Below are positions 277 to 38,095 of a stretch of 38,095 bases of DNA, in pieces. Position numbers and translations under genes: made by a program. The notes under the pieces are model-generated. The model had not been told where the DNA came from. It worked only from the letters and a program-made list of their open reading frames with translations, and ran no database searches. This stretch comes from a virus (lineage: Duplodnaviria > Caudoviricetes): IMG/VR virus record IMGVR_UViG_3300050331_000090, positions 1 through 38,095 of that record; one strand, 5' to 3'. Position 1 is the first letter of the stretch. Each line of letters begins with the position of its first letter.

Positions 277-447
277 TTACAAATTATTAGGATCATTATT
301 TGTTTCGAGTGTAACATATTCATTTGTGTTTTCGTCCAATATGGCAATGGGTTCAATGTTGCCCTTGGAGTCACCTCGAACGATCACTTTATGCTCTTCT
401 TGCTGCGCTTCTTCGGAGAGTGATTCAAATGCTTCGGTATTGGTCAT
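277..447 (-). CDS. Small acidic hypothetical protein (56 aa, MTNTEAFES...)
   Basis: TAAGGAGG Shine-Dalgarno at 451-458 precedes ATG 447; the longer track start (582) overlaps the upstream gene. Confidence 0.7.
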   Translation of the reverse strand: MTNTEAFESLSEEAQQEEHKVIVRGDSKGNIEPIAILDENTNEYVTLETNNDPNNL

Positions 448-455
448 AATCCTCC

Positions 456-1971: not shown

Positions 1972-1974
1972 AGC

Positions 1975-4438: not shown

Positions 4439-4453
4439 ACAAATAGATACAAA

Positions 4454-5004: not shown

Positions 5005-5007
5005 AGG

Positions 5008-6173
5008 TTAGATGGTTGAAACACCGTTGATGACAGTCAGCCCCATGATGGCCCCGTCAGATGAGTCGTATTCAGGCCGGAACGTCATTTCGTCGTAGAT
5101 GATGCCGTCGACCTCAATATTGTTCGGCTTAGCGGTCATTTTCAGGTTGTTGGCCGTGGCACGAATTTCATGACTGGCTCCGGCAAAGTGGCGAACCACC
5201 AGCGCACGCTTCTTCATCAGATCAAGAACCCGATGGGATGCAGGACCATCGAAGAATTGCTTGGTGGCAATCTCGAAGTCGCCAATCGTGCGAGCTGGGA
5301 AGGCGCGATCCCATGAGCCTGAGCGGTCTTTGCGTCATCCGTCTCAAAGGCATGCGTAATTGTCCAGGCACCAGAATCAGCTTCCAGTGGTGTACCGGAA
5401 CCTGACAGGGCAGTGGAGGCGTCTGTGTAGGAGTAGCGGTAGTCGGTTCGAGCCCAGGTGATGGTGTCGGAAAGCGATAGGCTGGCCGTCAAGGCCCGCA
5501 GGCTCAAGAAGTCGCCCGATGCGGCGCCACTCGCTGAGGCTACGGTGACGGTAGTGTCGTCCAACGATGAAACGGTCGTGTTGACCACGCTGCCATTTGC
5601 CAGGTGAATGCGGACGACATCGGTGGCGACTAAACCCTTGGTCGGCGTTGATGAATAGGTGGTGGCAAGGGTCAGGGTATCACTATTGACGTTGGTGATT
5701 TCAGCAGCGGCGAAAACGCCACGGGCATGCAGCTGGGTCGTGAAGATGCCGTGGTTGCCGTCAAAGCTCATTCCCAATGACGATGACTCAACACCGAAGT
5801 AGCGATAGGGGATCTGACCCTTCATGACTTCGACGGTGTAGGAGTTCGGATCAGTGGTGGCTGAGAGAGTGAATGGATGGGTGTAGGTGCCTGATCCCGT
5901 GGTTGAACCTTTGGTCAGGATCATGTCGGCCAGGTAGCCGGCAGTGTTTGGTTCAGCTAAAAAGGTTGCCTCGCCAGCGGTGTAGCGCTGACCCATCAAA
6001 TTGCGGAATCGAGCCGCCTTGTTGCCGGCGATGATCTTGATTTCATCCAAATTCGGGTTGAAGGAGACAGATTCAGAAATGAGCGGCATTCCGATGGTCG
6101 GAATGACGGGAGTGCCCTTGGCGGACTCCTTTTTGATCATGCAGTAGCCGAGATTGGCAAGGCGTTCAGCCAT
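5008..6173 (-). CDS. Major tail tube protein, split by a 1-nt deletion near 5330
   Basis: Track ORFs 5217..6173 and 5008..5217 join via an open -1 frame (DRSGSWD...KQFFDG...DLMKKRALV), ~388 aa; position before the chaperone. Confidence 0.8.
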
Positions 6174-6176
6174 AGG

Positions 6177-6326
6177 TTAAGAATCCTTCTTAGGTTTGTT
6201 CTCCTTCACGAGTTCGAGAAACGGGTTGTGCAACGGGTGATCAGCGCTGATGGTGTTATCAGGCTCAACCACGCCGACATTTGGGATTTCTAAAGGCAAA
6301 AGGGACGTATTGCGGTAGGTATACAT
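6177..6326 (-). CDS. Small hypothetical protein (49 aa, MYTYRNTSLLPLEIPNVGVVEP...)
   Basis: Fills the gap, below track cutoff; stop 3 nt before the tail tube ATG. Confidence 0.7.
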   Translation of the reverse strand: MYTYRNTSLLPLEIPNVGVVEPDNTISADHPLHNPFLELVKENKPKKDS

Positions 6327-6337
6327 AAACTGTTTGC

Positions 6338-6367
6338 ATTGTAGGCAGATTGACAACTGCGAGTCAA
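6338..6367 (-). promoter_or_regulatory. Sigma70-like promoter with inverted repeat
   Basis: TTGACT-18 nt-TACAAT on minus; ATTGAC-N8-GTCAAT palindrome over the -35. Confidence 0.55.
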
Positions 6368-6865
6368 TTAGGTTCTCGTGCCGATGATCTGTAAATCTTC
6401 AAAGACGCCGGTGACGGTGACCCCTTGTGTCAACACATCTTTCCCTCGGGGAAACAGGCCGTAATCAACCGTGAGCTGCTGGCCGGTGGAGAGGTTGCCC
6501 AGGGTGTAGTTGCGTTGCAGGACACCAACTATCGTTTGCTCGCCGAGTTGGCCGGTGTCAGGGTCGATGCCTTCAGCGATCCTCTCCAGCCGTGCTTTGA
6601 CGAACGTCTTGTCGGGCGCCTTGTTGAAGTCTTCCTTCTTATTGAATTCGGCCTGGATTGAAACTGTGTGCTCCATACGGACCATGCCGGTTGGGGCACG
6701 GCCAGCAACTGGGGAGGATTGGACATCCACAATCAGGCAAGGTAGGTACATTTCAGGGATATGGACCGGGTCGCCGTCGTAGTAGAAGAAAATATTGCCG
6801 AAGGTGACTTTCATCAGTTCGAGACTCTTGGCTGGAAATGGTCGGGTGTAGGAATCTACAGTCAT
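6368..6865 (-). CDS. Putative tail terminator/completion protein
   Basis: Position upstream of tail tube; P-C-L-I-V-D type core. Confidence 0.6.
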   Translation of the reverse strand: MTVDSYTRPFPAKSLELMKVTFGNIFFYYDGDPVHIPEMYLPCLIVDVQSSPVAGRAPTGMVRMEHTVSIQAEFNKKEDFNKAPDKTFVKARLERIAEGIDPDTGQLGEQTIVGVLQRNYTLGNLSTGQQLTVDYGLFPRGKDVLTQGVTVTGVFEDLQIIGTRT

Positions 6866-7311
6866 ACAGCTCGTCTGACGCGACTCATCACATCATCGCG
6901 CAGAATATCTTCAACGCGCAGTTTCATCTGCTGGGTGAGGTCAACAATGATGCGTTGGGGCACGCCTTCGCCTTTTTGGTGCTTCTGCAGGTAAGGCACG
7001 CCGTTTTTGATTAAGAGGTAATCGCGAGTCGTTACCGATTTGAATCCGCGCCGCATGTTGCCAGAGCGCTCCAGGATGCCCCTGCCGGGGTAGCGGGTCG
7101 ATTTCCAGGCGGCGTATTCAGGATTGAGTGGCGTCCATCTGCGGCCATACACAGCCCCTTCAGACTCAAATACGTCGACCGTGAAGACCTTCAGCAGGTA
7201 CTCGGCGGTCGAATCAAAGCCGGACTTCATGTCTGTCATGACCTTGCTCACGCGCCGCAACATGTCCTGGGTGGCCTTACCGCCTTCGATGCGTACTGTC
7301 ATCTGCACCAT
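6862..7311 (-). CDS. Phage virion morphogenesis protein (Mu gpG-like)
   Basis: FESEG...WTPLNPEY...GILERSGNMRR...YLQKHQKG..VPQR motifs. Confidence 0.85.
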   Translation of the reverse strand: MVQMTVRIEGGKATQDMLRRVSKVMTDMKSGFDSTAEYLLKVFTVDVFESEGAVYGRRWTPLNPEYAAWKSTRYPGRGILERSGNMRRGFKSVTTRDYLLIKNGVPYLQKHQKGEGVPQRIIVDLTQQMKLRVEDILRDDVMSRVRRAV

Positions 7312-8252
7312 TAGAAGCGATCCTCGATACCAAACGTGGCCGGACGGTAGCCGCCTTCGTAGTTCACGTCAGTCGGCATGTCGCCGGTGGAGGTGGGAAG
7401 TTGGTTGCCTTGAGCGTCGACCAACATCAGCTCGCCCTTCTGAATACTCGTCAGCGTCTTGCGGGCATCGTTTTTGGCGATGATGCCGTCCTTGTTGGTA
7501 CCTTCCGCGCCTGAGCCATAAGCACGAGTCAGGAGGAATCCAGCGGCCAGTAGGGTTGCAACCGAGTAGAGCAGGGGCACGTCTACTTCAAACGGAAGCG
7601 TGTAGCCAGCGATCGAGCACGCGCTGTTGATTTCCGCCTCAGCTTTGATCCTGGCGTTGTTAACCTGCACATCTGTCACACGGTCGAACTCGCTGAATCC
7701 AGCCTCGTCCCGGATGTCGTCCAAGGTGGTGTAGTGGCCGAAGTCGCCGCCACGCACCGCCAGAGACTGGGAGAGTGAGGTTCCTGTCGAGGCAGCCGAG
7801 TTCCAGAAGATGGCCTTGTACCAATAGTCTGATCCGCCGTCAGGGTCAGTGATCTGGGTAGCCGACTGGTCGGGTTGGATGGTGACGGGATTCGTAGGGG
7901 CCGTCGAAGTGTAGGCAGCAAAGTCAGTGTCGGCTGGTTGAGTGCCATCGACGTTCGCAGCACGGTAGAGCTTGAGCTGATTTCCCACCAACTGCCAGAC
8001 CTGGGCGCCAGGTAAGTGATCGAAGGTCAGGTTGGACTTGAGCGTGAGCACTTGGCCGGCGATCGAGTCGATTTGGCCGAGCTCAGCATTTTCAGTCAGC
8101 GGGTCAATGACGACCCAGGATTCATCGGTAAATCCGGAGATCGATTCGAGATCAACGTCCTTCTGGCCAGCGTCGGACAAAGCATCCGTTTTGGTTTTGG
8201 CGACAAGATTTACAGAATCGAAGTTGGAAAGGCTAAGAACCTCAGCGGGCAT
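7311..8252 (-). CDS. Head-tail adaptor (Mu gp36-like C-terminal domain) with extra N-terminal domain
   Basis: YTTLDDIR...AEAEINS...GYTLPF...LTSIQKGELML in the last ~140 aa. Confidence 0.7.
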   Translation of the reverse strand: MPAEVLSLSNFDSVNLVAKTKTDALSDAGQKDVDLESISGFTDESWVVIDPLTENAELGQIDSIAGQVLTLKSNLTFDHLPGAQVWQLVGNQLKLYRAANVDGTQPADTDFAAYTSTAPTNPVTIQPDQSATQITDPDGGSDYWYKAIFWNSAASTGTSLSQSLAVRGGDFGHYTTLDDIRDEAGFSEFDRVTDVQVNNARIKAEAEINSACSIAGYTLPFEVDVPLLYSVATLLAAGFLLTRAYGSGAEGTNKDGIIAKNDARKTLTSIQKGELMLVDAQGNQLPTSTGDMPTDVNYEGGYRPATFGIEDRF

Positions 8253-13775: not shown

Positions 13776-14699
13776 TTAGTTCACCACCGACAGCAGTTTG
13801 TAGATGCCGTCCTGGCAGGTGATCTTGTGCTCGTACTCGCGAGAAATCCGCACGTAGGTGGACTTCAGGTCCTCATTCCACCAGCGGGACACTTCGTAGT
13901 TGTCCGACAGCTCCAATCCGTAACCGGCTGAAACGTCTTCTAGGCTCGGATTCGGGTTGATGTACATGATGTAGGCGTTCTTGCCCCAGATGTACGAAAT
14001 GGCATCAGCTGCACCCTCTAAACCAGTGTTACGGGCAGCGTCACCCACGACCACGCGTTTGACACCAATCAACTCAGCAATGATGTCCAGTCGTGCAATC
14101 CGGGTCTGGGTGTCACCAAGTCGTGCCAACACGTCTGGGTGGTTCAACAACGGGCGTACGGTCTGTTCACCCAAGACCAAGGTGTTTGGGGTCTTCAGGG
14201 CGTTCAGTTTGGCGGCGTCAACTGCGTCTTGCAGCATGCCGATCGGGTCGGAATTGTCGACATCATCCCAGCGATCGGTAGCGGTTGCGATGGTCGTGCC
14301 CTTGCTGGCAGCGGCCAACTTGGTGGCAGCATCGATTTCCTTCGAGATCTTGGACTTTTCAGTCAAGATTCGGGTTGCGGTGCGGAACGGAGCCAAAGGC
14401 GATTCTGAGCGCTCGACCTCTTCCTTGGTGACCTTCTTCTTCAGCTCGTGCTGGAGCAAAGGACCAAAGGATTTGGTGGTTGGCGCGTAGTCGATCTCGT
14501 TGGCAGGTGTACCTGGAGCCCGCAGATCGTGCTCGGCTCGTAGGTTCGACTTATCCCATTCGTAGTAGACGCCCGTATTCCGGTTGACTTTCAACGTTGG
14601 GAACACAACGTCGGCGATGAAGGTCATGTCCGCATTGGTGTAAGCGAGCGATAGGTTCGTTAGTAATTGATCTCGTTGATATTGTTGTCGTTGTGGCAT
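13776..14699 (-). CDS. Major capsid protein (HK97 fold, E-like)
   Basis: LTNLSLAY...FIADVVFP...WDDVDNSDPI...PNTLVLG...LLNHPDVL; 307 aa after the protease. Confidence 0.9.
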   Translation of the reverse strand: MPQRQQYQRDQLLTNLSLAYTNADMTFIADVVFPTLKVNRNTGVYYEWDKSNLRAEHDLRAPGTPANEIDYAPTTKSFGPLLQHELKKKVTKEEVERSESPLAPFRTATRILTEKSKISKEIDAATKLAAASKGTTIATATDRWDDVDNSDPIGMLQDAVDAAKLNALKTPNTLVLGEQTVRPLLNHPDVLARLGDTQTRIARLDIIAELIGVKRVVVGDAARNTGLEGAADAISYIWGKNAYIMYINPNPSLEDVSAGYGLELSDNYEVSRWWNEDLKSTYVRISREYEHKITCQDGIYKLLSVVN

Positions 14700-14713
14700 A
14701 GTTCAGTATCCCC

Positions 14714-15086
14714 TTAAGCAGGAACCCTATTACTCGTAATAAGTACATCCATGATTTCGTCGTTGTTGGCGACTGTGGTTAGCCCGATGGCTGCGACCCA
14801 GTGACCGCAGTCGGATGTGGTGACGCCCTCTCCACCTGCGCGGAGGTAATCAATGCACCAATCAGCAATACCAGCGCTCACTCGAAGTTTCGAGCGACCG
14901 CGATGGCGACTTCAGCAACTTCCCAGCAACCGGCGTGTTTTGTAGGATGCCGAGAATGGCTTCTGTGCCAGCCGTAGCGACGACGACGGTATTTTCGTCA
15001 CTGACCTTGACGAAACAGTATTGAGCGCCGGAAAGATCTGCACCGGCCTTCATTGGAATAGTTTGTAGGCTATTTGCAACAGACAT
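14714..15086 (-). CDS. Capsid cement/decoration protein with at least two indels (~14923, ~14898)
   Basis: AGADLSGAQYCFVK...ILGILQNTP then in shifted frames EVAEVAIA / RSKLRVSAGI...EIMDVLITSNRVPA*; ~124 aa when repaired. Confidence 0.7.
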
Positions 15087-16297
15087 TATTTTGTACCTCC
15101 GAAGCCATACTCATCTGCGACCAGTTCGCTGTTGTCAGCGAGAACCTGATCCAGTGCCTGGCTAAATTCCAAGGTCTGACCGGCTTTTGCAGCCTCGGCA
15201 ACCTTGGCCTGAGCCAACTGAGTCAACTTGTCGTCAGCTGAGGTGCTCAGGTTTTGACCGTGTCCGGTCTCCTGGGTGAGCTGATGTAAGCCTTTAGGCA
15301 TGTCTGCCATCAGAGCACCAAACGCCTTCTTCTGGTCGGCACTCAAGCCGAAAATGAAGTCGGCCAGCTTGTCCGTGGACTTGGCTAGGAAGACTCCATC
15401 AGGATTGCCCTGGGAGAAGGTGAAGCTCTTGGCCACCTCTTTGGCATCCGCCTTTTCCAAGCGAGTCATCGCCTGAGCGCCGGCGTTTGCCATCTTCTTC
15501 AGAGAGTCCACTTCGGCTTGACTCATCTGGACGGTCTTGCCGCCCTTCTGAGCTAGCTCGGCTTTACCAGCATCCGAGTCCGCGTTTTCTGCGTTCTCAT
15601 CGCTGTCATCCTCGCCTTCGCCGTCTTTGGCATCATCATCACCGGCATCTCCAGCGTCTTCGGCTTCTAAGCCGAACTTGGTTCGTTCGTCTTCGTTCAA
15701 ATCTGCGAAATGCTCTTGAAGGAACGCTTTTTCCTCCGCGGACAAGTCGGCAGCAGCTTTAGCTCGAATGTCTTCGAGATTCATAGATGCTCCTTCCTGG
15801 GCAAATAAAATGGTGAATGGATTTGTCTTGTCCTGGTGCTGGCTAAACAACGCTGGGATGTTCTGCAGCATGGGGTAGTTGGTTAACGCCGCACCGGACA
15901 GCACGTTGCCATGCTCTCCCCCAAAGGTGGGGTCTTCGTAGTCAGTAGAAAATTCAGCGGAGATGTAGCGGTACTCTTTGTCTTCGAGCGCCTGGATGCC
16001 AGCCTTGGTCCAATCGACAGCGGCGAAGAGACCTTCTCCGGCTTTGTGAATCAGGCCAGATACCCATGCGGCAGCCTTGCCGTAGGTGTGATCAAAGTTG
16101 ATCGGCACGCCATTAGGCACTCCTGAATCAAAGTTCTTGACCATCTCGGCGAGCATGGAATCGGTAATATCGATTTTGCCGGAATAGGTATCGTATTTGC
16201 CGACTGGCAGTACCAAGATCTCAGTGGGCAGAGATCCATCCTGATTCAGTTGTATGAAGGTTGGCTCATTCAACCTCGCTCGTAAGAGTGTGGACAT
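15086..16297 (-). CDS. Prohead protease/scaffold (Mu gpI-like)
   Basis: PINFDH...AAAWV...VDWT...EYRYISAEF...GAALTNYP, followed by an acidic scaffold region. Confidence 0.92.
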   Translation of the reverse strand: MSTLLRARLNEPTFIQLNQDGSLPTEILVLPVGKYDTYSGKIDITDSMLAEMVKNFDSGVPNGVPINFDHTYGKAAAWVSGLIHKAGEGLFAAVDWTKAGIQALEDKEYRYISAEFSTDYEDPTFGGEHGNVLSGAALTNYPMLQNIPALFSQHQDKTNPFTILFAQEGASMNLEDIRAKAAADLSAEEKAFLQEHFADLNEDERTKFGLEAEDAGDAGDDDAKDGEGEDDSDENAENADSDAGKAELAQKGGKTVQMSQAEVDSLKKMANAGAQAMTRLEKADAKEVAKSFTFSQGNPDGVFLAKSTDKLADFIFGLSADQKKAFGALMADMPKGLHQLTQETGHGQNLSTSADDKLTQLAQAKVAEAAKAGQTLEFSQALDQVLADNSELVADEYGFGGTK

Positions 16298-16305
16298 TAC
16301 CTCTC

Positions 16306-16335
16306 ACGATATAGAAAAGTAATTGGGCCTGTCAA
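16306..16335 (-). promoter_or_regulatory. Putative promoter for the protease-capsid operon
   Basis: TTGACA followed at 16-18 nt by TATATC/TATCGT in the intergenic gap. Confidence 0.45.
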
Positions 16336-16342
16336 TGGGAAA

Positions 16343-17203
16343 TTAGAACCGCTCCCGCAGCGACTTCAGGTAGTCGGCTCGGTACTGCTCGATGTTGGAT
16401 GTGTCTTGCTTCGCTCCGAATGACAGTTCAATTCCGCATCGACACGAAACATGTAAGGGCGGGGAGTATCCGCCTGGGAATGAGTCGGTGATTTTCACGG
16501 TCACGCCATGCAGCGACTGACATAGTGGACACGCCCCAATTTGCGCTCTCCACCGCTTCTCGGTAGCGCCCATCTCAATCCCCGCCTGGACTCTGCCTTC
16601 TGAGAATGCCTGGACGCTTTCGGTTTGGGCAATCGCACGTCGCCTGGCTGGATTGTCAAAGATGGATTCGAGCCGTTTCTCTAGGCCCGATCGATCCTCA
16701 CCAGCCAGCAGCGACTGCCTCACAGCATTCTTCACCCGATTTTTGGTAGTGACATTGATGTCACCCGCAAGTTTAGGAATGTGCCGCTCTAGGAACTTCT
16801 GCGCTGGTTGGTCCATCGGCGAGTAGTCGATGGTGAATCCCAGCTCGGATTGACTCATCAAAGCACCAGCGGATAGGTCGCTGGGCAGATTGGCAGCGAA
16901 GATTTGGTTCAGCCAGTCCTCGTCCTGATCCCAGGCGAAATCGATGAAGATGCCTAGGTCATCGAACTGGTCGAGTTGGATGGAGTGGATGGCTGCGAGA
17001 TTGAAGTGCTCATCGAGCGTTTCGACCTGGCGACGGTTGAACTCCTTCAGATCGAGTTCCAGCCTGGCTGTGGATTTAAGCAGCAGGGCTAGGGCGTCGG
17101 GGTACTTGTAGTAGATGGGCGCGTAGCCACCGTCATCCGTGGCGAGCTCAAAGACGATGCCGGCGATATCTCGTTGTTGGGCCAGGAAGTGCTCAAGTGG
17201 CAT
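16343..17203 (-). CDS. Head morphogenesis protein (Mu gpF/SPP1 gp7)
   Basis: RRAIAQTES...KRW...CPLCQSLHG...PPLHVSCRC. Confidence 0.92.
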   Translation of the reverse strand: MPLEHFLAQQRDIAGIVFELATDDGGYAPIYYKYPDALALLLKSTARLELDLKEFNRRQVETLDEHFNLAAIHSIQLDQFDDLGIFIDFAWDQDEDWLNQIFAANLPSDLSAGALMSQSELGFTIDYSPMDQPAQKFLERHIPKLAGDINVTTKNRVKNAVRQSLLAGEDRSGLEKRLESIFDNPARRRAIAQTESVQAFSEGRVQAGIEMGATEKRWRAQIGACPLCQSLHGVTVKITDSFPGGYSPPLHVSCRCGIELSFGAKQDTSNIEQYRADYLKSLRERF

Positions 17204-18548
17204 GCTCCTCCCGAATGGCGAGTCGGATCGCTTCAGCCTCCCGCTTGACGTAGTGTTCGAGAAAGTCGGCCTGACTCATCTGCTTGCCTTCTTCCTTCTT
17301 ATCTGGCTCACCAGTTGGCAGCACGATTGGCTCGGGTTTTTCAGACGGCTCTGGGTAGTAGCTGTCCTCTGGCGCTTCCGGAAGATTTAATAGGCTGCGG
17401 AGGTGGTTTTCGATCGGTAGCTCAGGCGTGTAGGTGTTGAATCCCTTCATCAGGTTGAGGGTTTCGGCGATCTGCTTCACATCGACCTTGCCGATGCCAT
17501 CCGGCTTGATGGTCGGGTATTCCTTCACCGTGAAGTTGAGATCGACCAGGCGGCGAATCACATACTTGTTGATCGGGTCGGCCAGCTCGTTAACGGCAAT
17601 GAACTCCAGCGACATTTCAAAGAAGTCCGACAGGTCCTCAGCCACGGCGCGGGCACCAGTCTCGGTTGAACCGAGCGCCAGGAACGAGGCCAGGACAGAA
17701 AGTAGGATCTGGAACTGGTGGTACTGGATGGACTTCAAGGGCTCACGGGTGGTATTGGCCTTCATGTCCATGAACTCGATTTCCCAACCCAGCGGCTCGT
17801 AGAGCACGTCGTCCTCATTCGCTCGCAGGTTCTTCAACCGCTCCAGCAGCTGCGCCTTGTCGTCATCAGAGGGTTTGGAGGTGGACTTGGCCTTGGGAAT
17901 GCCTAAGCCCTGGCGCTCATGAGCCATCACGTCGATCTTTTCCAGCGCGTCCTTCATCTTCCAGTGCTTGTAGGCCGAGCGCAGGAGCGAGATGCCTTCC
18001 CAGTTGTCGCCTTCTTTTTCATTGGTGAAGATGACCAGCCGCTCGATCGGGATATCCACTTTGGTGCCGTCCATCTTCATCTGCTGGATGCCTGGCTGTC
18101 CGCTGCTGGTTTCCCAGGCCCAGACGGTGGAGGGCAGGCGGGGAGACAGCTTCTTCAAGCCAACCTGGCCCTCGCTGGTGAGCTGATAGACGATTTCAAA
18201 CAGGTAACGGCCATAGTCGAGCATGTTCAGGCCCTCGCGGATGACATCCTTAAAGGGACGATCCATGCCGTTGAGTTGACCGTCCACCCACTCGGCAATT
18301 GCTTTGTCTTCCGCAGATTCTGAGGCGGGTTCGACATTCCAGTCAGCCGCCAGGATCGGCAGCTTCACGGCTCGCAGGGCAGCCTTGACGGTGGCATCCC
18401 CCAGGCGCATCTGGTCGTAGACCTTGAGGCCCTTGTCACCCACCAGATCGGTGTTGTAGTCGGGGTTGAAGAGTTGGCCGGCCAGAATGACGGTGCCGGT
18501 GTCACCAAGTTCTTTGAGCGATTTTGAAGGCTTTGGCTTGTCAGCCAT
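17193..18548 (-). CDS. Portal protein (Mu gp29/DUF935-like)
   Basis: YDQMRLGDATV...GISLLRSAYKHW...ERQGLGIP; between terminase and gpF. Confidence 0.9.
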   Translation of the reverse strand: MADKPKPSKSLKELGDTGTVILAGQLFNPDYNTDLVGDKGLKVYDQMRLGDATVKAALRAVKLPILAADWNVEPASESAEDKAIAEWVDGQLNGMDRPFKDVIREGLNMLDYGRYLFEIVYQLTSEGQVGLKKLSPRLPSTVWAWETSSGQPGIQQMKMDGTKVDIPIERLVIFTNEKEGDNWEGISLLRSAYKHWKMKDALEKIDVMAHERQGLGIPKAKSTSKPSDDDKAQLLERLKNLRANEDDVLYEPLGWEIEFMDMKANTTREPLKSIQYHQFQILLSVLASFLALGSTETGARAVAEDLSDFFEMSLEFIAVNELADPINKYVIRRLVDLNFTVKEYPTIKPDGIGKVDVKQIAETLNLMKGFNTYTPELPIENHLRSLLNLPEAPEDSYYPEPSEKPEPIVLPTGEPDKKEEGKQMSQADFLEHYVKREAEAIRLAIREEHAT

Positions 18549-18551
18549 AGA

Positions 18552-20168
18552 TTAGAAGCGGCGGTTCATCAGCCCGGCGGTGAGTGGTCTTGATTCTTGC
18601 GTGGTCGGTGCTTCCGGCTCTAGGTGCTCTTGCGCCAAGACCGGAAAGAGAATCAGGGTGCCATACCCAAGGGCGTCAGGACCGTGGTCGTCCTTTTTGA
18701 CTGGCGTGTCGGTGTACTTGCCATCAAGATCTTTCTTGTAGCGGTACGCCAGCAATTCATCTATCAAGTTAGTACATTTTGCTGACACTTGTAAACTACG
18801 ATCCGCGATCTTCTTCCGCACCAGCGGCAGTCGATTCTCCAGGCGGTAATACTCTCGCTCCAAGACCGGGTCGAGGACGGTGATCCCGGCCTGGCGCCGT
18901 TCCTCGATCTCGGTCAGTCCGGCCGGGTCGGGGATGTAGAGCACCTGCTGCTGATGGGTGGAGTAGCGAATGAGGCCAGTTGCATCGGACGTGCGCTGTA
19001 CTTCCACGCCATGTTCCGACTCAAGCCGATCAAAGGCGTCTGAGACATTCTCCCGACTGATCTTGCCTCGGTTGTAGATCTCATCGAAGATGATTAGGTC
19101 CTCACCGTCCACTTGGCAGAATAGGTTGACGTTGGGATTTTCGGGACCAAAGCCAAAGTCCTCAAAGATATAGATCGGCTTCCAGGCGTTGACTTCATAA
19201 TCCTTCTGATACTTGGGATTCGGATTTTGCGGACCGATGACATTTTCTTCGAGCGAGAACTGCGGAAACACCAGTCCTGAGCGCTCTGGCTGGTTGCAGA
19301 CCCACTGCACCGACCAGACCTCCGGATCGAGCGTCAGCTTCTTATTGATCAGGTCTTCCCAGTGGTAATAGCCGTCGGCCTGCTCTAAGCCCGCTGGCAG
19401 CTCGTCGCCAAACACTTCCTGGATCTTAGCCATCAGCTCGGGATCATCAACCGGCAGCGGCTTCATGACCTCCCAGCAGCACCAGGAGTAGACTGGCAAA
19501 CCGCGCTCTTTAAACTCATTGATGGTGCGGATCATCAGTCCGACCGCATACTTGACGGTCGAGGTGATGATGGTGCGAGCTGGCACGTCGCCCTTGGACT
19601 GCGCCATGGACAGCGCTTCCTGGTAGACGGCGTAGGCCATCAGCTCCACTTCATCGAGTACGTTCAGCTGCGGGTGAGGGCCATTGACCGCGGTGGGTGT
19701 GCCGGCCAAGATCTGCAGCACCGAGCCGTTTTCAAAGGTGCCTTTGGTGGCCGTCAGCTTGCGAGGGTCGGAGTTCGAGGAGAAGGGGTTGTAGCCGTTG
19801 ACTTCTTTGATGTAGCCGTAGCAGCGGTCGGCCTGCTGTTGGATGGCACCGACGTTGGCAGCTTCGAGCCCAGCGTGCCGATAGGTCTCGATCGCTTCGA
19901 TCAGTGCGACATTCTGTGTCTTGCCGCCTGAGCGGTTGGCGTAGGCGATGGCTTGGCGAAATGAGCCAAACAGCGCGTCGGACACGAAATCGAACGGGGC
20001 ACAGTGGTTGCTGCAGATGGCGACCCGTGGAATGTGGTACCCGGTGGTGGCCTGAATCCAGAGGTGGAGCTTGTGCTTATCCTGCTCGCTTATCGCTTGG
20101 TCCAGTAACAGGCGCAAAGCCTGCGGCGGCAAGGAGTTGACTGAGGGCTGATCCGTCTTTGACATCAT
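18552..20168 (-). CDS. terL: Terminase large subunit
   Basis: Walker A ANRSGGKT, Walker B VLDEVE, nuclease EDFGF and DDHGPDALGY; exact start uncertain. Confidence 0.9.
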   Translation of the reverse strand: MMSKTDQPSVNSLPPQALRLLLDQAISEQDKHKLHLWIQATTGYHIPRVAICSNHCAPFDFVSDALFGSFRQAIAYANRSGGKTQNVALIEAIETYRHAGLEAANVGAIQQQADRCYGYIKEVNGYNPFSSNSDPRKLTATKGTFENGSVLQILAGTPTAVNGPHPQLNVLDEVELMAYAVYQEALSMAQSKGDVPARTIITSTVKYAVGLMIRTINEFKERGLPVYSWCCWEVMKPLPVDDPELMAKIQEVFGDELPAGLEQADGYYHWEDLINKKLTLDPEVWSVQWVCNQPERSGLVFPQFSLEENVIGPQNPNPKYQKDYEVNAWKPIYIFEDFGFGPENPNVNLFCQVDGEDLIIFDEIYNRGKISRENVSDAFDRLESEHGVEVQRTSDATGLIRYSTHQQQVLYIPDPAGLTEIEERRQAGITVLDPVLEREYYRLENRLPLVRKKIADRSLQVSAKCTNLIDELLAYRYKKDLDGKYTDTPVKKDDHGPDALGYGTLILFPVLAQEHLEPEAPTTQESRPLTAGLMNRRF

Positions 20169-20466
20169 GGGCTACGTCGACCGGCACAGGTACCGGCGAG
20201 AATTCTTCGTACAGCTTGGGGAGGAGATTGTCAGGACGACCTTTGCCGTGCTTACGGGCATACTCGGCCTTCGCCCTGATTACGCGCTCCGCAAACTCAG
20301 GATCATCTTTCTCCCAATTGTTGATGGTGTCGATCGAGCGGCCAATGAAATCTGCGCCAGCCTTTTTGATCGGGAGCTCGCGGTAGTAGCTGAGGAAATC
20401 CTCTTTGAGCAGGGCTATTTCTTGCTTTTGGGTTAGTTTGGGATTGGCTTTGGCTCTGCCTGGCAT
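20077..20466 (-). CDS. terS: Terminase small subunit (HTH)
   Basis: IKKAGADFIGRSIDTINNWEKDDPEF; GGAGG SD; directly upstream of terL. Confidence 0.75.
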   Translation of the reverse strand: MPGRAKANPKLTQKQEIALLKEDFLSYYRELPIKKAGADFIGRSIDTINNWEKDDPEFAERVIRAKAEYARKHGKGRPDNLLPKLYEEFSPVPVPVDVAHDVKDGSALSQLLAAAGFAPVTGPSDKRAG

Positions 20467-20468
20467 AC

Positions 20469-20666
20469 TCAAGCCTCCTGCATGGTGACGATCAGCTCTT
20501 TACCGCGCAGTTCGAGCATCTGCTGAACTTCGTCGCCTGTGGCAAAATGTTCGAGCTTGAGAAAACCCGCGTCTCCCTCGCCACCGGAAAAGCCAATGGG
20601 CGTACCCGTAGCAGGAATAGCAGCCTTGAAGGCAAGGACTGCCGGTTCGTTCGATCGTTTGGTCAT
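20469..20666 (-). CDS. Hypothetical protein, first gene of the late operon
   Basis: 65 aa, abuts terS, preceded by the extended -10 motif. Confidence 0.6.
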   Translation of the reverse strand: MTKRSNEPAVLAFKAAIPATGTPIGFSGGEGDAGFLKLEHFATGDEVQQMLELRGKELIVTMQEA

Positions 20667-26224: not shown

Positions 26225-26440
26225 CTAGCGTCTCTTTCTGCGATACCGCCTAAACGGCGTCAGCTCGCATTGCGAGGTCGCGGCGGCTGGCGGGATACGG
26301 CGTGGCGGGTCTTCGTGCCGCTGCCGCAATATCTCGAAGTCCAGCGCTACCAGCTCCTGGCCGGTCACCAGGTTGCGTATCCGCTTGAATGGGATGCCCT
26401 CCCTGGTTTTCCCGCTCTCGACGCACTTCCAGCGGACCAT
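26225..26440 (-). CDS. Hypothetical protein overlapping the ArdC-like C-terminus
   Basis: GGGGG SD-like before ATG; more protein-like than the overlapping ArdC tail. Confidence 0.4.
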   Translation of the reverse strand: MVRWKCVESGKTREGIPFKRIRNLVTGQELVALDFEILRQRHEDPPRRIPPAAATSQCELTPFRRYRRKRR

Positions 26441-27269
26441 TGAGCACCCCCAGCACTTGCTTGACCAGCCTGGAGACGATCTCCAGATCTCCCTTCAGTT
26501 CTCCCTCTTCGACGCGGTAGGACAACAGGTAGTCCCGGCTGCCGGCGTTGGTGACGCCAAAGCGTTGGCAGACGACGTAGCTGACGGTCTCAGCGTGCCT
26601 TTCCTGTACTTTGTGTTGGCCGCCGTAATGACCCGCCATCAGATGACAGAGTTCATGCACCAAAACCGCTACCTTCTGCGCCTCGTTGAGCTGGGCGTTG
26701 ATCTTGATGCTCGACTTACCGATCGCTACGCCATAGGCTCGGCCCAAGGGATGCTCGGACACTTGGAAGCCATACTTGCGTACCGCTGCCAGGAAGCCCG
26801 TGTAGAGTTCCGGCCAGTCGACCTCGCCATAGGGATCTTCCAATTCCCTGGGCACACCGAGGGTGTAGTACTCCGCCGTCTGAGTGATATCCCAGACATA
26901 GGTTGGGAAGAAGCCGATCAGCTTCTTGCCCAGGATCTCGCCCGTCACCTTGTCGGCGTCATTGACCAGCCACGGGGCGCGAATGGCAATCCCCCGCTCG
27001 CTGACCTTGATGTGGTAGCCCAGGGCTTCGAGCCGCTTGCGTCCAGCCACGGCGGTGGCGTTTGGGTTTTGCCACCGGATCAGCCGCTGGTTGCCATAGG
27101 AGTACTGGTAGAACTTGCTCCAGAAATCCATAGCTTCCAGAAACACATCGGTGTGCCCCTGGCGCATTTGCTCTTCGAGTCTGGCGATGTCCTGATCCAG
27201 GTACTCGGTGATTTCCTCCAGCTTGCGCTGGGCACGATCACTCTTGAGCCTTGGTTGTGTCGCAACCAC
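26250..27269 (-). CDS. ArdC-like ssDNA-binding antirestriction protein with HExxH metallopeptidase domain
   Basis: FYQYSYGNQRLIRWQNPNATAVAG...GIAIRAP...VWDITQT; VLVHELCH; AETVSYVVC. Confidence 0.85.
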   Translation of the reverse strand: MVATQPRLKSDRAQRKLEEITEYLDQDIARLEEQMRQGHTDVFLEAMDFWSKFYQYSYGNQRLIRWQNPNATAVAGRKRLEALGYHIKVSERGIAIRAPWLVNDADKVTGEILGKKLIGFFPTYVWDITQTAEYYTLGVPRELEDPYGEVDWPELYTGFLAAVRKYGFQVSEHPLGRAYGVAIGKSSIKINAQLNEAQKVAVLVHELCHLMAGHYGGQHKVQERHAETVSYVVCQRFGVTNAGSRDYLLSYRVEEGELKGDLEIVSRLVKQVLGVLNGPLEVRRERENQGGHPIQADTQPGDRPGAGSAGLRDIAAAARRPATPYPASRRDLAMRADAV

Positions 27270-32840: not shown

Positions 32841-32849
32841 CTCCAGTTC

Positions 32850-33242
32850 TGGCAGTGATCTGCCATCACCTCATGGCCACATGAGGTCAAGCCCTTTAGC
32901 GGCTTGAGCCATGTGAGCACAATGAGGAGAGCAGGACGCTGCTTCCCCTCGGGAGCGAGCCTTCCTGGAAGGTTGAGGGCTGGCTTTGCCAGTCCGGGCG
33001 GGTTATGGGTGTCCCAGCCTGTTAGGCCGGGTTCCACTGTGGTTGGAAGTGAAGGGGTAGCTTTGCTGCCCCGTTGTACCCCGGTTGGGTAGACCAGGTT
33101 TATGGGTGGCCGGCAGCGGTTATCGGGAGCCGGCCCGATGCGCCAGCATCATCGAATGCAGTTCGTTTGACTGACTCGTCAGTTTGGAGATTTCTCTTAG
33201 ATAGTTCGCTAAATCGGACCTTTGACAACGAAGTTTGACAAC
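32850..33242. other. Hairpin-dense non-coding region, candidate oriT/ssi
   Basis: At least seven short inverted repeats plus tandem TTTGACAAC, adjacent to the relaxase. Confidence 0.45.
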
Positions 33243-33253
33243 CCCAGCGACAG

Positions 33254-34081
33254 CTAGGAGGCCAGCTTGGCGCGAATCGTGCGCGGTTTGGCGGTCGCCA
33301 CCAGAAACTCGTAGTCGAAAAACTCGGTCGGATTGGCCAGCATATCGATAGTGCCGAACCAGAAATTGGATCGGCCACCCACTCGCTCGTCCTGGGTTTC
33401 GGTTCGCAGACTTTCGGCCCGTGCCCAGGTGGTGCAGAAGGTGAAGACAATCGGCTGAGTCGGAAACTGGCCGCGCTGGTGCATCAGCTCGATGTAGCGG
33501 GGCACCTTCTTGACGAAGGCCGCAGGCGAGAGGCCTTTGACCTTGCTGGTGCGCTCGACCTCGATCAAGGCACAGAGTTCTGTGTAGCCATCCGTCAGGT
33601 GGATATATCCGTCAGGCAGCAGGCCAGTCCATTCCGACCGAATCCAGTCTTCGTCCTTGAAGTCGGCCACATCCAGGCCAGCAAAGTAGCCAGCCGCTTC
33701 AAAGGCAATCAAGGCATCATGGGTGGCGATGTAGTGGGGAGCGAAGTAGGGACTGCGCTGGTGAGAGAGCTTGCGAATGACGCCAGCTATTTCCTCTGAA
33801 TCCCAATAATCCCGCAGAACCTTGGCCCCAGCTTTGGTCAGTTTCTTGGTTGCGAACCTGCCAACCTGTTCGGTAATGATGAGCCCCATATGCTCCAAGG
33901 GGGTAACACAGTTGCGGTAGCAATCGCGCAGCGCATGGTCACGACTCCGCGGCTGGCCGCCGAGCGGAGCGGGTAGACCCTCGAATAAAAGTCGGGCGAT
34001 CTGGGCCGTCGTCAGCCTGCCGTACAGGTTCAGCGCTGCCAGCGTTTCGATTGGGTTTTCCAGTTGATCCAAGGACTTCAT
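33254..34081 (-). CDS. Replication-relaxation (Replic_Relax/MOB_C-like) protein
   Basis: N-terminal winged HTH (LTTAQIARLLF), PHYIATHD, LPDG...LIEVERTSK...KVPRY. Confidence 0.85.
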   Translation of the reverse strand: MKSLDQLENPIETLAALNLYGRLTTAQIARLLFEGLPAPLGGQPRSRDHALRDCYRNCVTPLEHMGLIITEQVGRFATKKLTKAGAKVLRDYWDSEEIAGVIRKLSHQRSPYFAPHYIATHDALIAFEAAGYFAGLDVADFKDEDWIRSEWTGLLPDGYIHLTDGYTELCALIEVERTSKVKGLSPAAFVKKVPRYIELMHQRGQFPTQPIVFTFCTTWARAESLRTETQDERVGGRSNFWFGTIDMLANPTEFFDYEFLVATAKPRTIRAKLAS

Positions 34082-35372
34082 ATGTAGCTATTTTCTCACG
34101 CAAGATAGTCTCCGCAGTCAAGCCCGGTCGTTGACGTTCGACCGCTCGTGCTAGCTGCGTTGGGTCGGCTTCGACCAACCAGTCATTTAGACCAATCTTG
34201 GCGAAGGGGGCAGGGTCTAGCAGACCTGGGACTTCATCGTGCATCGACAGCACCGCCTCATATTTTTTGAGGCTCCTGATGAGCTCGATGACCTCTGGGT
34301 CGATGATGTCCTTGGAAGCTTTGATATCGGCGGCGGTCATCTTGAGAAAGAATGAAATGGGAATACCCGTAGTGGAGTTGGCGACCGTATTTTTCTTGCC
34401 GCTGGTGACTTCGAGCTGTCCCAAATTTTGATGGGCCATCATCGGGTAGACCCCGGATACCTGGCCTTGATCAAGCATGGCCGAGAAGTTGGCACCAGCG
34501 TATTTATGGAACTCGTCGCAGACCAGTCGGATCGTCCGCATGCCGGGCTGGTGACGCCGGGAAAAGAGGTAGTTCATGGCAATGGCCAGAATTAGCGAAG
34601 CGTAGTCTTCGCGCTGATCCCACACGATGTCGGTAGCGCAATCCACCACCACCAGCTTGCCGTCCTCCAGCCACTCTTCCAAGTGGATTGAGGTCTTGTT
34701 GATGAGCAGGTATTTGAGCGATTCAGGAGCCAGCATGTTGAACAGCCGGTTCATCACCGAGTTGACTTCAGAGGTTCGGGCAGAGGCTGGATGGTCTTTG
34801 GACTCGAAGCGATCCCATTCTTTGACCAGCTCTTGGTTCATGTGCAGCCGGCCTGAGCGGTAGGGCTCCAAAAACCGCAGTCGATAGACCGGCTCGGTCA
34901 GGATCATCCGCACTTTGACCATGTTGGGATCGTCGTCATACATGATGGTCCGCAGAGCCAGATTGAGGAACCGCCGAAACTGCTGCATGACCTCCAAATC
35001 GGCTTCCGCCAGCCGCTCGAACATCGCCAGGGCGTTGACGACGATGTTCTCCACGCTGACCCGATCCCGGTCATGAATCTCTATCGGGTTAAGGCCCCAG
35101 TGGTACATCCGGCCATCAAAGACATTCTTGCCCAGGCGGATATAGATTAGGCGATCCGGGTCGGCGCGGGCCGCAATGTCCTCGGCCAGCAGGCCGTCCT
35201 TGACATCAATGACTAGCACGCCTTCATCGGCAGCGTTGAGCTGGAGGGCGAGGTTGCCGAGCAGCACCGATTTGCCATGGCGCGGCAGGCCCAGCACCAT
35301 CACCGGGCAGCGCATTTCGTCCTGCTCAAGCTCCAGCTCGATGCCGGTTTCGTACTGCCCAACGGTAATCAT
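33939..35372 (-). CDS. Type IV coupling protein-like ATPase (VirD4/TraG/TrwB)
   Basis: Walker A GLPRHGKS, VIDVKDG, GLNPI, Walker B LVCDEFH, AHQNLGQL. Confidence 0.85.
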   Translation of the reverse strand: MITVGQYETGIELELEQDEMRCPVMVLGLPRHGKSVLLGNLALQLNAADEGVLVIDVKDGLLAEDIAARADPDRLIYIRLGKNVFDGRMYHWGLNPIEIHDRDRVSVENIVVNALAMFERLAEADLEVMQQFRRFLNLALRTIMYDDDPNMVKVRMILTEPVYRLRFLEPYRSGRLHMNQELVKEWDRFESKDHPASARTSEVNSVMNRLFNMLAPESLKYLLINKTSIHLEEWLEDGKLVVVDCATDIVWDQREDYASLILAIAMNYLFSRRHQPGMRTIRLVCDEFHKYAGANFSAMLDQGQVSGVYPMMAHQNLGQLEVTSGKKNTVANSTTGIPISFFLKMTAADIKASKDIIDPEVIELIRSLKKYEAVLSMHDEVPGLLDPAPFAKIGLNDWLVEADPTQLARAVERQRPGLTAETILREKIATYEVLGSTGKPNRNAGSAEPVRQADDGPDRPTFIRGSTRSARRPAAES

Positions 35373-35944
35373 TTTCGTTTGCGTAGCCGCTCCAGCAGCA
35401 GGGACATGTTCTGATTCTTCGCACGGGAATCCAACTTCCCACCCATGGCTTTTTCCAAGAGCCGTTGCGTCTCTTCCAATTCTCTGGCCAGGTCCTCGTA
35501 GGACTTCTCCTGCGGGGCGATCAATTCGGCCTGCAGCCGCAGGATTTTCTCCTCCTGAATTCGATTGAGTGCCGCCTCAGAAGCATCGTGCTTCCGGATC
35601 TGTTCTTTCTCCTTGGCGTCCAATGCCAGGCCAAGGACATCCCGCAGGAAGGTCAGCTGTGCCGTCGTCAGCAGTCCCTGCAGGCGTAAGAATTCGATCT
35701 GGTAGTTGCTCATCGACTGCAAAGTCTGGATCTGGGTCTGTTGCCAGGCTTGAATCGTCGCGAGATTCTCCGCCTTGCGGGTGTCCTCTTTGGAAAGCTT
35801 GAGCAGTCGATTGGTTTCCATGTTGTGCATATAGCGCTCTCGGAAGAAACCACCGGGACCGAACATCCCTCGCTGGATGGCAGCACCAAGGACCACCGCG
35901 CCAATCATGACCACAAGTACAAAAGCAGCGATGAGGTCATCCAC
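35369..35944 (-). CDS. Single-TM coiled-coil protein
   Basis: N-terminal hydrophobic helix, Q/E/L-rich remainder; ATGA-coupled to the ATPase. Confidence 0.75.
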   Translation of the reverse strand: MDDLIAAFVLVVMIGAVVLGAAIQRGMFGPGGFFRERYMHNMETNRLLKLSKEDTRKAENLATIQAWQQTQIQTLQSMSNYQIEFLRLQGLLTTAQLTFLRDVLGLALDAKEKEQIRKHDASEAALNRIQEEKILRLQAELIAPQEKSYEDLARELEETQRLLEKAMGGKLDSRAKNQNMSLLLERLRKRK

Positions 35945-36335
35945 GTTCGGCCTCGCTTTGTTTCATCAGATCGTGATAGTCGATGGGGTTCTCCGGTTCA
36001 GGAGACAGGTCAATGATTTCATCCACCACGCTCTTTTTGTGTTCGACCACTCGGTGCCATTGCACCTCTCGGACGACGACATAGGCGTACCGTAAGGCAA
36101 TGACTTTCGCAGACTCGATCAAAATCCAGCTGCCAATCACAACCATGACGACCGTAATCACATATTTAGACCACTGGGGTCGATCCGCACTCCACACGAT
36201 AAGCGTCGCCACTGTCAACGCGGCCATGCATAACAGCGCCACTGCAAGCGTTTTGCGATGCTCCCAGGTCGCCTCATCTAGCGCGTCTTGCAGGTAGTCC
36301 AGGCGCTCCATACCGGAAATCGGGTCCCGCTCCAC
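35937..36335 (-). CDS. Two-TM membrane protein
   Basis: Two hydrophobic helices; GGGAGG SD before GTG. Confidence 0.75.
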   Translation of the reverse strand: MERDPISGMERLDYLQDALDEATWEHRKTLAVALLCMAALTVATLIVWSADRPQWSKYVITVVMVVIGSWILIESAKVIALRYAYVVVREVQWHRVVEHKKSVVDEIIDLSPEPENPIDYHDLMKQSEAERG

Positions 36336-36520
36336 AGGCAGTCCTCCCTATAGGAATAGTTTGTTGGTTTGGAACGGCAGTATATCTGAAGTAAAAGATG
36401 TCGAAGGTGTATTGACGCGAAAGTTTGACAACTCATTGACGTAATAGAATGAAGCTGCCAGTTGGCGGGCACGACCCCCGCAACGCCACCGTCGCTCAGC
36501 GCGTTCCGGCATCACTAGCG

Positions 36521-36548: not shown

Positions 36549-36809
36549 GCAAGAGCAGGACTTATGTTCTTTTGTGGCCACATTGAACCAATGTCTACGG
36601 GGCAGGCCTGGGAGATACAACCAGGAACAGAACCTTCAACCCGTGGCAGGGGGTCCAAATTACCTCGCCAGCTGGCCCAAGGGGTATCATGCGCGTGGGT
36701 ACAGGCTTTGTCATGTTGGCGGGTTCAAAGTCTACCTTTGGCGAGGCTCAGAGTTCTGGTCTGAGTAACAGGAAGACGTGCAAATAGATTCGCTACAACC
36801 CTAACCAAC

Positions 36810-37058
36810 ATGCTCGTGCACCAGAAGTTGTCACCACTCTCCGAGCTTAGCGGCGTTGACGCTGCGTACATTCGGAAGCTGTTGAGCGGCGAGAAACATC
36901 GTCCGTCACCGGAAACGGTAGTGAAGCTGTGGATCGGTCTGATTATGGACCCTGTGTTGGTCGAGGCAGATCCCACCTTCGTTCACGGACTCGATGCGCT
37001 GCTCCGGGCTTGCGCGATGACAGCAACCTCCTTCAAGGTCATGGCCGACGCGGCCTAG
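36810..37058 (+). CDS. XRE-family HTH regulator (candidate repressor)
   Basis: LSELSGVDAAYIRKLLSGEKHRPSPETVVKL; divergent from the early operon. Confidence 0.75.
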   Translation: MLVHQKLSPLSELSGVDAAYIRKLLSGEKHRPSPETVVKLWIGLIMDPVLVEADPTFVHGLDALLRACAMTATSFKVMADAA

Positions 37059-37135: not shown

Positions 37136-38095
37136 CTATCCAGCTCGTTTTGTTGAATATCGTTGCCGTCGCCGTTGCAGCTCGTCCGGTTGATCTTTGA
37201 TGACCGAGACGAACGGTGATGCAGCGTCATGGGCGGCCAGTAGGTCTTCGTCCGTCAGGTTGACGTAACGCCGGGTCGTGCTATAGTCCTCATGCCCGAG
37301 CAGCATCGACAGATGATCCCCAGTCGTTCCCTTGCGAACCATCTCAGTGGCAAACTGATGCCTGAGCAGGTGCGGGTGAAAATGCTCCAGTCCCGTCTCG
37401 TCCTTGATTCTGCGGAAGGTGGTTCTGATCCCTGCCGAGGAAAGGTGGAACAGCGGCTCGTCATCAATTCCCCTGATGGAGAGGAACTCCCGAAGGTACT
37501 CTCTGACCCGTGGCGAGAAGAATACTCTGCGCTCCTTGTTGCCCTTGCCAATGACCGTCAGGCGTCTGGCTTCCAGGTTGAGACTGCGAAGCGTCAGAGA
37601 TGCCGCCTCCTCTCTGCGGATACCCGTATCGAGCATCAAGGCCACCATCGCCCGGTTGCGGATCGAGCGAGTGGAGTTGCCAGTCAGGTAGGCGCTTGAC
37701 CACATCCGCTCAACTTCCGTCTCATCCAATACCCTAAACAGCCGCTTCGGCATGGTCGGCATCGGACAGAACACTTCCTTTTGAAGATACTCGTTGCGGT
37801 AGAGCCATTTAGTGAAGGCTCGCATATCCCGCAGGTGGCAGTGAATCCCGACTTCGCTCCGGACGGTTGAGCCATGCTGGGGCTTGATCGGCAGATCCCG
37901 AAGCCAGATGGTGAAGGCTTCCATGGTCGCCGTGGTAATGACCGAAGCGTCTGAGGGAAGGCCTGTCTCCTCGACAAACCTGCGGAAATAGGCAAAGGTG
38001 AAGCCGTATCGGTCTTTGGTTCCCTTGGCTCGATTCTTGGAGAGCTGAAACCGCTGGTAGGCTTCGATCAGGTCGTCTAAGGTGTTACTGTCCAT
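37136..38095 (-). CDS. int: Tyrosine recombinase/integrase
   Basis: TGIRREE, GKGNKER, HPHLLRH, LLGH, TTRRY. Confidence 0.95.
   Translation of the reverse strand: MDSNTLDDLIEAYQRFQLSKNRAKGTKDRYGFTFAYFRRFVEETGLPSDASVITTATMEAFTIWLRDLPIKPQHGSTVRSEVGIHCHLRDMRAFTKWLYRNEYLQKEVFCPMPTMPKRLFRVLDETEVERMWSSAYLTGNSTRSIRNRAMVALMLDTGIRREEAASLTLRSLNLEARRLTVIGKGNKERRVFFSPRVREYLREFLSIRGIDDEPLFHLSSAGIRTTFRRIKDETGLEHFHPHLLRHQFATEMVRKGTTGDHLSMLLGHEDYSTTRRYVNLTDEDLLAAHDAASPFVSVIKDQPDELQRRRQRYSTKRAG

Follow-up and report, generated by a model that had tools for sequence, protein, structure and literature searches.

The early operon and its complete relatives

The DNA analysed here, which we call the window, is the whole of virus record IMGVR_UViG_3300050331_000090, 38,095 bases long, and our subject is a four-gene operon near its right end that pairs a coupling-protein-like ATPase with a PF13814 (MOBC-type) nuclease. 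The left end of the record falls within a tail gene and the right end at the ATG of an integrase gene. Along the minus strand, the order starts with the integrase, a divergent XRE repressor gene, the operon, small early genes, a C5 methylase gene and an ArdC-like gene, and continues with an EcoRII-type restriction-modification set, an HNH gene and the terminase, portal, head, neck and tail genes. By its terminase, portal, capsid, tail, integrase and repressor genes the window belongs to a temperate tailed phage; lysis genes were seen only in the two relatives described below.

A first-pass annotation of the sequence had described four overlapping genes divergent from the XRE gene, two of them for membrane proteins. 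Both points held: the four minus-strand open reading frames (ORFs) overlap by 8, 4 and 143 nt, and hydropathy predicts the transmembrane (TM) segments listed in Table 1.

Table 1. Features of the window, with the operon and its surroundings first.
Feature	Position	Strand	Evidence
Membrane protein A, 132 aa, 2 predicted TM	35937..36335	-	hydropathy; no family above cut-off
Membrane protein B, 191 aa, 1 TM then charged helical tail	35369..35944	-	hydropathy; no family above cut-off
Soluble coupling-protein-like ATPase, 477 aa, Walker A at 28, Walker B at 286, Gln304	33939..35372	-	model, Foldseek, profile, residue counts
PF13814 / MOBC-type winged helix-turn-helix (HTH) + PD-(D/E)XK nuclease, 275 aa	33254..34081	-	PF13814, motif, structure matches
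Hairpin-rich non-coding DNA behind nuclease gene, candidate nick site / single-strand origin	32841..33253		DNA folding vs shuffles
21-nt direct repeat (12-nt exact core) flanking operon, copy 1, candidate operator	36412..36432		repeat search
21-nt direct repeat, copy 2	33222..33242		repeat search
XRE repressor, divergent from operon, start approximate	36770..37058	+	PF01381; counterpart in G001 and G002
Tyrosine integrase, ATG at record end	37136..38095	-	PF00589 9e-34; 60% / 36% identical to G001 / G002 integrases
ArdC-like ssDNA-binding/metallopeptidase-fold protein	26250..27269	-	PF08401 E 0.003, below cut-off
Terminase small and large subunits	18552..20472	-	PHROG matches; TerL 66% identical to G002
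Portal, Mu-F-like protein, protease, major capsid	13776..18548	-	Pfam and PHROG matches; G002 identity
Neck, tail tube, tape measure, Dit, hub genes	1..8252	-	PHROG matches and relatives; left end incomplete

A family scan of viral contigs confirmed two of 126 candidate stretches, the proviruses G001 (46.3 kb, CheckV 100) and G002 (46.8 kb, CheckV 99). Both show the order integrase, divergent XRE, TM plus helical protein, ATPase, nuclease, small genes, ArdC, single-stranded DNA-binding protein (SSB), methylase and terminase, and the operon stands between the repressor and the small early genes in all three known members. Their ATPases are each 26% identical to that of the window. The head genes of G002 are like those of the window (portal, Mu-F-like protein and capsid 55-60% identical, with the portal at 55% and the capsid at 60%; protease 44%), whereas the head of G001 is of HK97 type, although its integrase is the closer one. 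The positional counterparts of protein B in G001 and G002 have 308 and 331 aa, each with a TM and a charged helical tail, and show no tblastn similarity to it at 1e-4; in the ESM Atlas the best value for protein B was 0.79, a low recognition. In all nine distinct loci scoring above 260 bits the nuclease gene overlaps the end of the ATPase gene, seven of these loci being in the model and only L009 and L012 independent of it.

When alignments of terminase, integrase and ArdC were used for scanning, G001 and G002 were the only close relatives to appear. Among the 101 loci from those scans, ATPase and nuclease occurred together only in the G001 and G002 loci, and a distant ATPase in two others. 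A separate metagenome scan covered 27 of 64 parts, with 80 of 93 loci kept. From 34 of 64 parts of GTDB, 79 loci were obtained, and their ATPases were all distant, of Patescibacteria or Actinomycetota type at ~20-30% identity; a single-protein scan of viral contigs gave no match. As to taxon names, one of 10 relatives is Chloroflexota and one integrase relative Propionibacteriaceae.

The limits of the element could be read in the host contig of G001, where a perfect repeat of 38 bp, corresponding to the 5′ half of tRNA-Arg(TCG), was found at L010:6290-6327 and L164:2364-2401. Its copies lie ~220 bp before the integrase and past the lysis module, and they bound ~44 kb with one integrase inside. 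This single attachment (att) pair encloses integrase, operon, virion and lysis genes. There are thus an integrase, a relaxase and an att-bounded unit without mating-pair genes, as in an integrative and mobilizable element (IME), with the att pair demonstrated in G001 only; the window's own att sites lie outside the record. The operon is part of the phage and not a neighbouring insertion.

We looked for att repeats or synteny that would mark an IME and a phage as separate adjacent insertions, and met instead the one G001 pair spanning operon and virion genes. Such a double insertion is very improbable. It could appeal to the position of the window's att sites beyond the record, to the 21-nt repeat flanking the operon, and to an 89,155-bp contig that lists identical integrase, A, B and 95-aa XRE genes with portal and ArdC not listed, where a contig end or a virion-less copy is possible. 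However, the order is identical in all three prophages with no second integrase inside, and ArdC, an IME-type gene, is interleaved with phage-type genes. The GC content at third codon positions of the operon (0.65-0.71) also matches that of the virion genes (0.65-0.75), and across 18200-38095 read-run contigs fill 30 of 30 bins (depth 2-8) without a step or a joint; these contigs come from two runs of one study, possibly the window's own source, and cannot reveal an excised circle.

Around the G001 ends, the 5′ half of tRNA-Arg(TCG) is duplicated (L164:2326-2401, L010:6290-6327), which places the start of the intact tRNA within the end of the phage. Just outside stand a second XRE and a split integrase, and the other flank holds a degenerate copy of the transglycosylase gene of the phage (L010:3253-3485). 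A tRNA-like Rfam match of 42.5 bits lies in the early region of G002 (L004:12171-12281), for which ARAGORN makes no call; no tRNA or Rfam family was found in the window.

The ATPase, the nuclease and the DNA behind them

The third gene had been called a VirD4/TraG-like ATPase without a TM of its own, and our analysis confirmed this: hydropathy gives no TM, and Foldseek and profile comparison give a TrwB-type fold. The protein has no match of its own in Pfam and none to PF01580; it matches phrog_5156 (4e-23) and, far below cut-off, SXT TraD (5e-6). Its family is soluble, mostly 450-600 aa long, and holds 30 clusters at E<=1e-30 and 109 at 1e-10. The structure model (predicted local distance difference test 89.8) has a RecA-like core with an all-alpha insertion, nearer TrwB than FtsK. 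Foldseek placed TrwB best (TMq 0.59-0.60, against 0.50 for HerA and VirB4), and the best profile matches were TrwB (5e-8) and DotL (4e-7). With VIA-align, the Z scores were 28.4 for VirB4 (332 residues aligned, root-mean-square deviation 3.2), 27.1 for DndH, 25.5 for TrwB (360, 3.7), 24.2 for HerA and 23.9 for DotL.

FtsK was ruled out, with Z 15.6 over 211 aligned residues against 24-28 for VirB4, TrwB and HerA and no PF01580. The concern that the ATPase might group with HerA or FtsK is thereby removed for FtsK; the modelled protein is coupling-protein-like, yet the HerA and VirB4 folds are close and there is no clean separation. A defence reading as MADS was also rejected, since the weak PADLOC mad8 matches of all three ATPases are to the ATPase fold only and no other MADS gene was seen.

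The N-terminal membrane anchor of coupling proteins is absent from this ATPase, and TM proteins are encoded upstream. A split form of coupling protein is possible, in which proteins A and B may anchor the ATPase. A complex prediction of ATPase and protein B scored 0.00 and counts neither way.

An Arg after Walker B, which we take to be the arginine finger, is kept in 54 of the 56 rows of alignment A2, in TrwB and in G002, whereas the window has Gln304 and G001 has Asn; the comparison is post hoc, with n=3 prophages and the genomic context unknown for most family members. The G001 sister sequences P0064 and L012 retain the Arg, and an independent contig shows no other letters at the Gln304 codon. 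That two of the three prophages have lost it independently speaks against the ATPase being an active pump for conjugation. The window also shows a Gly-to-Arg change in Walker A, where 48 of 56 family rows have Gly. In a quick tree (65 rows, SH-aLRT only, reference proteins on long branches) its end branch is 1.24, against 0.14-0.45 for clade neighbours. G001 and G002 fall in one starred clade of that tree, the window in another and the non-phage loci L005, L007, L008 and L009 in further clades, a sequence pattern consistent with module swapping in a pool of IMEs and plasmids.

Other members and distant relatives of the family vary in context. In the family ATPase P0030 an intein-like insertion precedes Walker A. 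The clostridial prophages at L002:6779-11206 and L001:2-1426 carry a distant ATPase with no adjoining nuclease match; in L002 a ParM-like gene and two small hydrophobic ORFs precede it, and the conserved Arg seems to be missing. The L002 ATPase matches 95 phage records, and no relaxase is annotated beside ATPases of this type in TP-84, phiCp-D, 000TH010 (small upstream genes) or SP-10.

Taken together, the lost Arg, the Walker A change and the long branch could mean that the operon is what is left, in a decaying state, of the IME from which the integrase came, and that the prophage around it is itself perhaps defective. Two structural genes, the tail-tube gene (5008-6173) and a small capsid-associated ORF (14714-15086), are each split into two ORFs in the window and single in G002, by assembly error or decay. 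However, the window has demonstrated indel errors at its XRE gene, whose 5′ end (36757-36836) carries 9 single-base insertions and 3 substitutions relative to X2, an independent contig of the same element. Because of these insertions, and because 95-aa XRE versions are on record, the 82-aa ORF of the window is probably an assembly error hiding a 95-aa repressor, and the split genes may be errors as well. All four operon ORFs are open, the nuclease motifs are intact, and the module persists in three lineages at 26% identity. We regard decay as quite improbable.

The assignment of the fourth gene to the Replic_Relax family was upheld, PF13814 scoring 31.4 bits against a cut-off of 25.3, and the D...ExERxxK...RY motif read in it at first is present as D157, E174, K191/192 and Y196. 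D157, E174 and K192 are invariant in 8 of 8 nuclease homologues, and the Tyr is found in 7 of 8. The protein thus shows the MOBC motif D...ExE...K...Y and no HUH motif. Its model (predicted local distance difference test 81.7) best matches gp146 of Bacillus phage G and a phage JL protein (to 1e-8); against PDB there were only weak FokI-type nuclease matches (E 2e-3). Passages of earlier work place PF13814 among PD-(D/E)XK nucleases (PMC3424549) and report its motif in HTH proteins of the Stx-phage replication region (PMC8951638). The G001 nuclease scored 36.4 bits with PF13814; that of G002 gave no match at E 0.003, yet is 26% identical to the window protein. The G001 nuclease also matches phrog_9381, 'replication initiation by nicking' (2.7e-11), which is a label only and not a test. 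Tblastn of the window nuclease against cultured phages gave no match.

Behind the nuclease gene lies non-coding DNA with strong folding potential. On the two strands, with 15-30 shuffles each, 32841-33253 gave z values of -3.5 and -5.1, and the same position gave -11.0/-8.8 in G001 and -7.1/-4.2 in G002, against -1.5 to +0.8 for control regions before the operon. The DNA structure stands behind the operon, not ahead of it, in all three phages. In G001 it is a long near-perfect stem and in G002 a 151-bp inverted repeat at 73.5%; the window region had no Rfam match.

The 21-nt direct repeat on either side of the operon is a possible binding site of the repressor or the nuclease. It was not seen at the corresponding places in G001 and G002. 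We set it aside as att or origin of transfer, as there are two exact 12-nt cores and the relatives lack it. At <=2 mismatches the core has 6 matches in place of the 2.2 expected, and 3 of 100 shuffles reach 6.

Replication, transfer or an accessory role

In neither the window nor G001 and G002 did we recognise a gene for an initiator, helicase, loader, primase or polymerase. The G001 and G002 ORFs searched (73 against Pfam, 71 + 39 against PHROGs) were the longest non-overlapping ones, picked by script and by hand, and the same PHROG scan detected O-like initiators in the non-phage loci L005 and L007. The first-pass annotation had noted the absence of replication genes in the window. None is indeed recognised there, but this absence alone is no evidence because the record is truncated at both ends; what carries weight is that two complete relatives also lack recognisable replication genes, and from them the earlier idea of the relaxase as replication initiator gains support. 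It is further supported by the nuclease, whose catalytic residues are kept while the ATPase Arg is lost in the window and G001. The ArdC-like gene is present in all three prophages.

We put at about 40% the probability that a small group of temperate phages, built on an IME backbone, has this operon as a fixed early module, with the MOBC-type nuclease as rolling-circle initiator. On this model the excised DNA would be nicked by the nuclease within or close to 32841-33253, and one strand would then be displaced by the helicase and polymerase of the host. Synthesis of the second strand would be primed at the hairpins, and ArdC (with SSB) would shield the single strand. The ATPase would be the partner of the nuclease and, via proteins A and B, a membrane tether; its pumping activity is likely dispensable because two of the three copies have lost the conserved Arg. 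Transfer via the mating channel of a helper would be either a secondary function or one that the ancestor had.

Several observations weigh against a role of the nuclease in initiation. SPO1-like phages encode their own replisome yet carry the pair. A same-family ATPase and nuclease stand behind ParA and an O-like initiator at L005:2423-12976. Many ORFs in the three prophages have no family, and a divergent initiator could be missed among them; SSB was recognised in G001 and G002 only, not in the window, whose post-lysis end is absent from the record. The hairpins have no sequence common to the three phages and may be RNA structures, and the known members number only three. In passages of published accounts, the pair of Thrax phages occurs alongside the replication initiator gp22 (PMC9703825), a repA-like gene coexists with the pair in RBClin15 (PMC11526630), and a review describes MOBC proteins as little known in the role of rolling-circle initiators (PMC5714925). 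At L005 a second PF13814-like gene lies 2 kb further on.

The pair has known counterparts in lytic phages. In Goe9, which is SPO1-like, an actin-like gene, two membrane protein genes, a P-loop ATPase gene and a replication-relaxation gene are annotated in a row, the last four in the same order as in the window. The family profile gave 101.9 bits on Goe9 gp27.4, compared with 35.0 on TrwB, 22.8 on the 532-aa ATPase ORF of CloDF13 and 10.9 on R388 VirB4, and the nuclease profile gave 1.4e-12 on gp27.3. Gp27.3 itself matches 65 of 50,697 phage records, with SPO1, CP-51, Tsamsa, Thrax and G among them; all are Bacillus phages among the matches listed (the best 40 of the 65). Passages of PMC9703825 describe a pair of type IV secretion system protein and replication-relaxation protein in Tyroviruses and suggest a plasmid origin. 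The operon thus resembles gp27.3-gp27.9 of SPO1-like phages (Goe9, SPO1, CP-51, JL) and gp11-18 of Tyroviruses, going by the same passages, in its membrane genes, coupling-protein-like ATPase and overlapping PF13814 gene, and is homologous to them by profile. Their ATPase, however, is longer (~900 aa), has an additional N-terminal region and is encoded after an actin/ParM gene, and other replication genes are present alongside it. In the window the ATPase is a soluble core of 477 aa that occupies the early slot of a phage that integrates, in company with ArdC and without any recognised replication gene.

By this likeness the operon might do an accessory job such as that of SPO1 gp27.3-27.7, for instance keeping phage DNA in place or shifting it at the membrane or septum, or cleaving DNA of the host or of competitors, which is neither initiation nor classical conjugation. 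The weak mad8 matches would suit such a job, although they are confined to the ATPase fold. But it leaves unexplained the missing replication genes and the order integrase, XRE, operon and ArdC, and the closest ATPase relatives include non-phage loci. On balance we consider an accessory job unlikely.

The first-pass annotation had proposed a hybrid of phage and mobilisable element. One part that stands is that the operon lies in a phage; such a hybrid is not unprecedented, the same gene set being annotated in SPO1-like phages and Tyroviruses. In the parts of PMC11526630 that concern it, RBClin15, a temperate Bacillus phage, likewise has an operon of an ATPase and PF13814, though its motor is of the FtsK/SpoIIIE type and the window ATPase is not. 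Passages of PMC11389934 contain no such phage-IME hybrid. In the literature covered, from which subscription journals are largely absent, we found nothing that describes this phage group or examines by experiment what the pair does in a phage. The pairing is known in kind; it is unusual in standing in place of replication genes.

Among mobile elements, one close counterpart is streptococcal IME_Class_8, whose signature of VirD4, PF13814 and integrase is described in passages of PMC5357655. It shares with the window a compact coupling protein, a relaxase, an integrase and the lack of mating-pair genes, but has a serine integrase and no virion genes where the window has a tyrosine integrase, head, tail and (in its relatives) lysis genes, and the window coupling protein lacks a TM of its own. 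A PD-(D/E)XK-type nuclease is also paired with a coupling ATPase in CloDF13 MobB/MobC and pAD1 TraX, according to parts of PMC5714925 and PMC3424549. CloDF13 is remote by the ATPase profile score given above, and its record gave no nuclease match. CloDF13 and pAD1 are plasmid-borne with separate replicons. A coupling protein can reportedly be needed for MOBC nicking, as studied in CloDF13.

The IME_Class_8 signature invites the view that the operon is a working mobilisation module, in which nuclease and coupling ATPase hand the excised prophage to a helper mating channel, an unrecognised initiator sees to replication, and the phage spreads by virion and by conjugation. Parts of PMC8708921 describe ArdC, found in all three prophages, as an establishment gene of conjugative plasmids. 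Same-family pairs also occur in non-phage loci (L005 with its own ParA and Rep), the membrane genes are retained upstream in all three prophages, and G002 keeps the conserved Arg. However, that Arg has disappeared from the window and from G001 in separate events, the ATPase of the window sits on a long end branch, and no VirB4 or pilin gene was recognised in the three phages. By the usual logic of leading regions, moreover, the genes behind the nuclease, which point away from the candidate site, are ill-suited to early expression from a strand nicked there. We judge a working module rather unlikely. Unlikely too is the combination of both functions, in which phage-IME hybrids without their own replisome genes would use one MOBC nuclease, acting at one nick site, both to start rolling-circle replication for packaging and to hand over the whole prophage of 44-47 kb to a borrowed mating channel.

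Neighbouring genes and significance

In the rest of the window, the ArdC-like protein is 34-35% identical to the G001 and G002 proteins that do pass the PF08401 cut-off. The 5′ end of its gene (27081-27277) has a 197-bp duplicate, 84% identical, at 28135-28331, which makes a second, truncated copy; two small ORFs separate the copies. The EcoRII-type set (HTH-fused C5 methylase, Vsr and endonuclease) and a second C5 methylase occupy 22681-25630 and 28376-29560, and the restriction-modification slot holds different cargo in G001 and G002. An AT-rich promoter-like stretch (31796-31855) lies at the start of the small, low-GC early gene block.

The pair of ATPase and PF13814 protein is present in dozens of cultured Bacillus phages, the model phage SPO1 among them. 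The prophages described here offer a natural contrast, as they carry it where replication genes should be and, of its two members, the nuclease is retained whereas a key residue of the motor seems to be disappearing. Should the nuclease be their initiator, they would represent a PD-(D/E)XK-type rolling-circle initiator in a tailed double-stranded DNA phage and a worked case of a mobilisable element turned phage backbone. If transfer also works, such prophages could pass receptor barriers by conjugation on their own signal, and would have two independent routes between cells.

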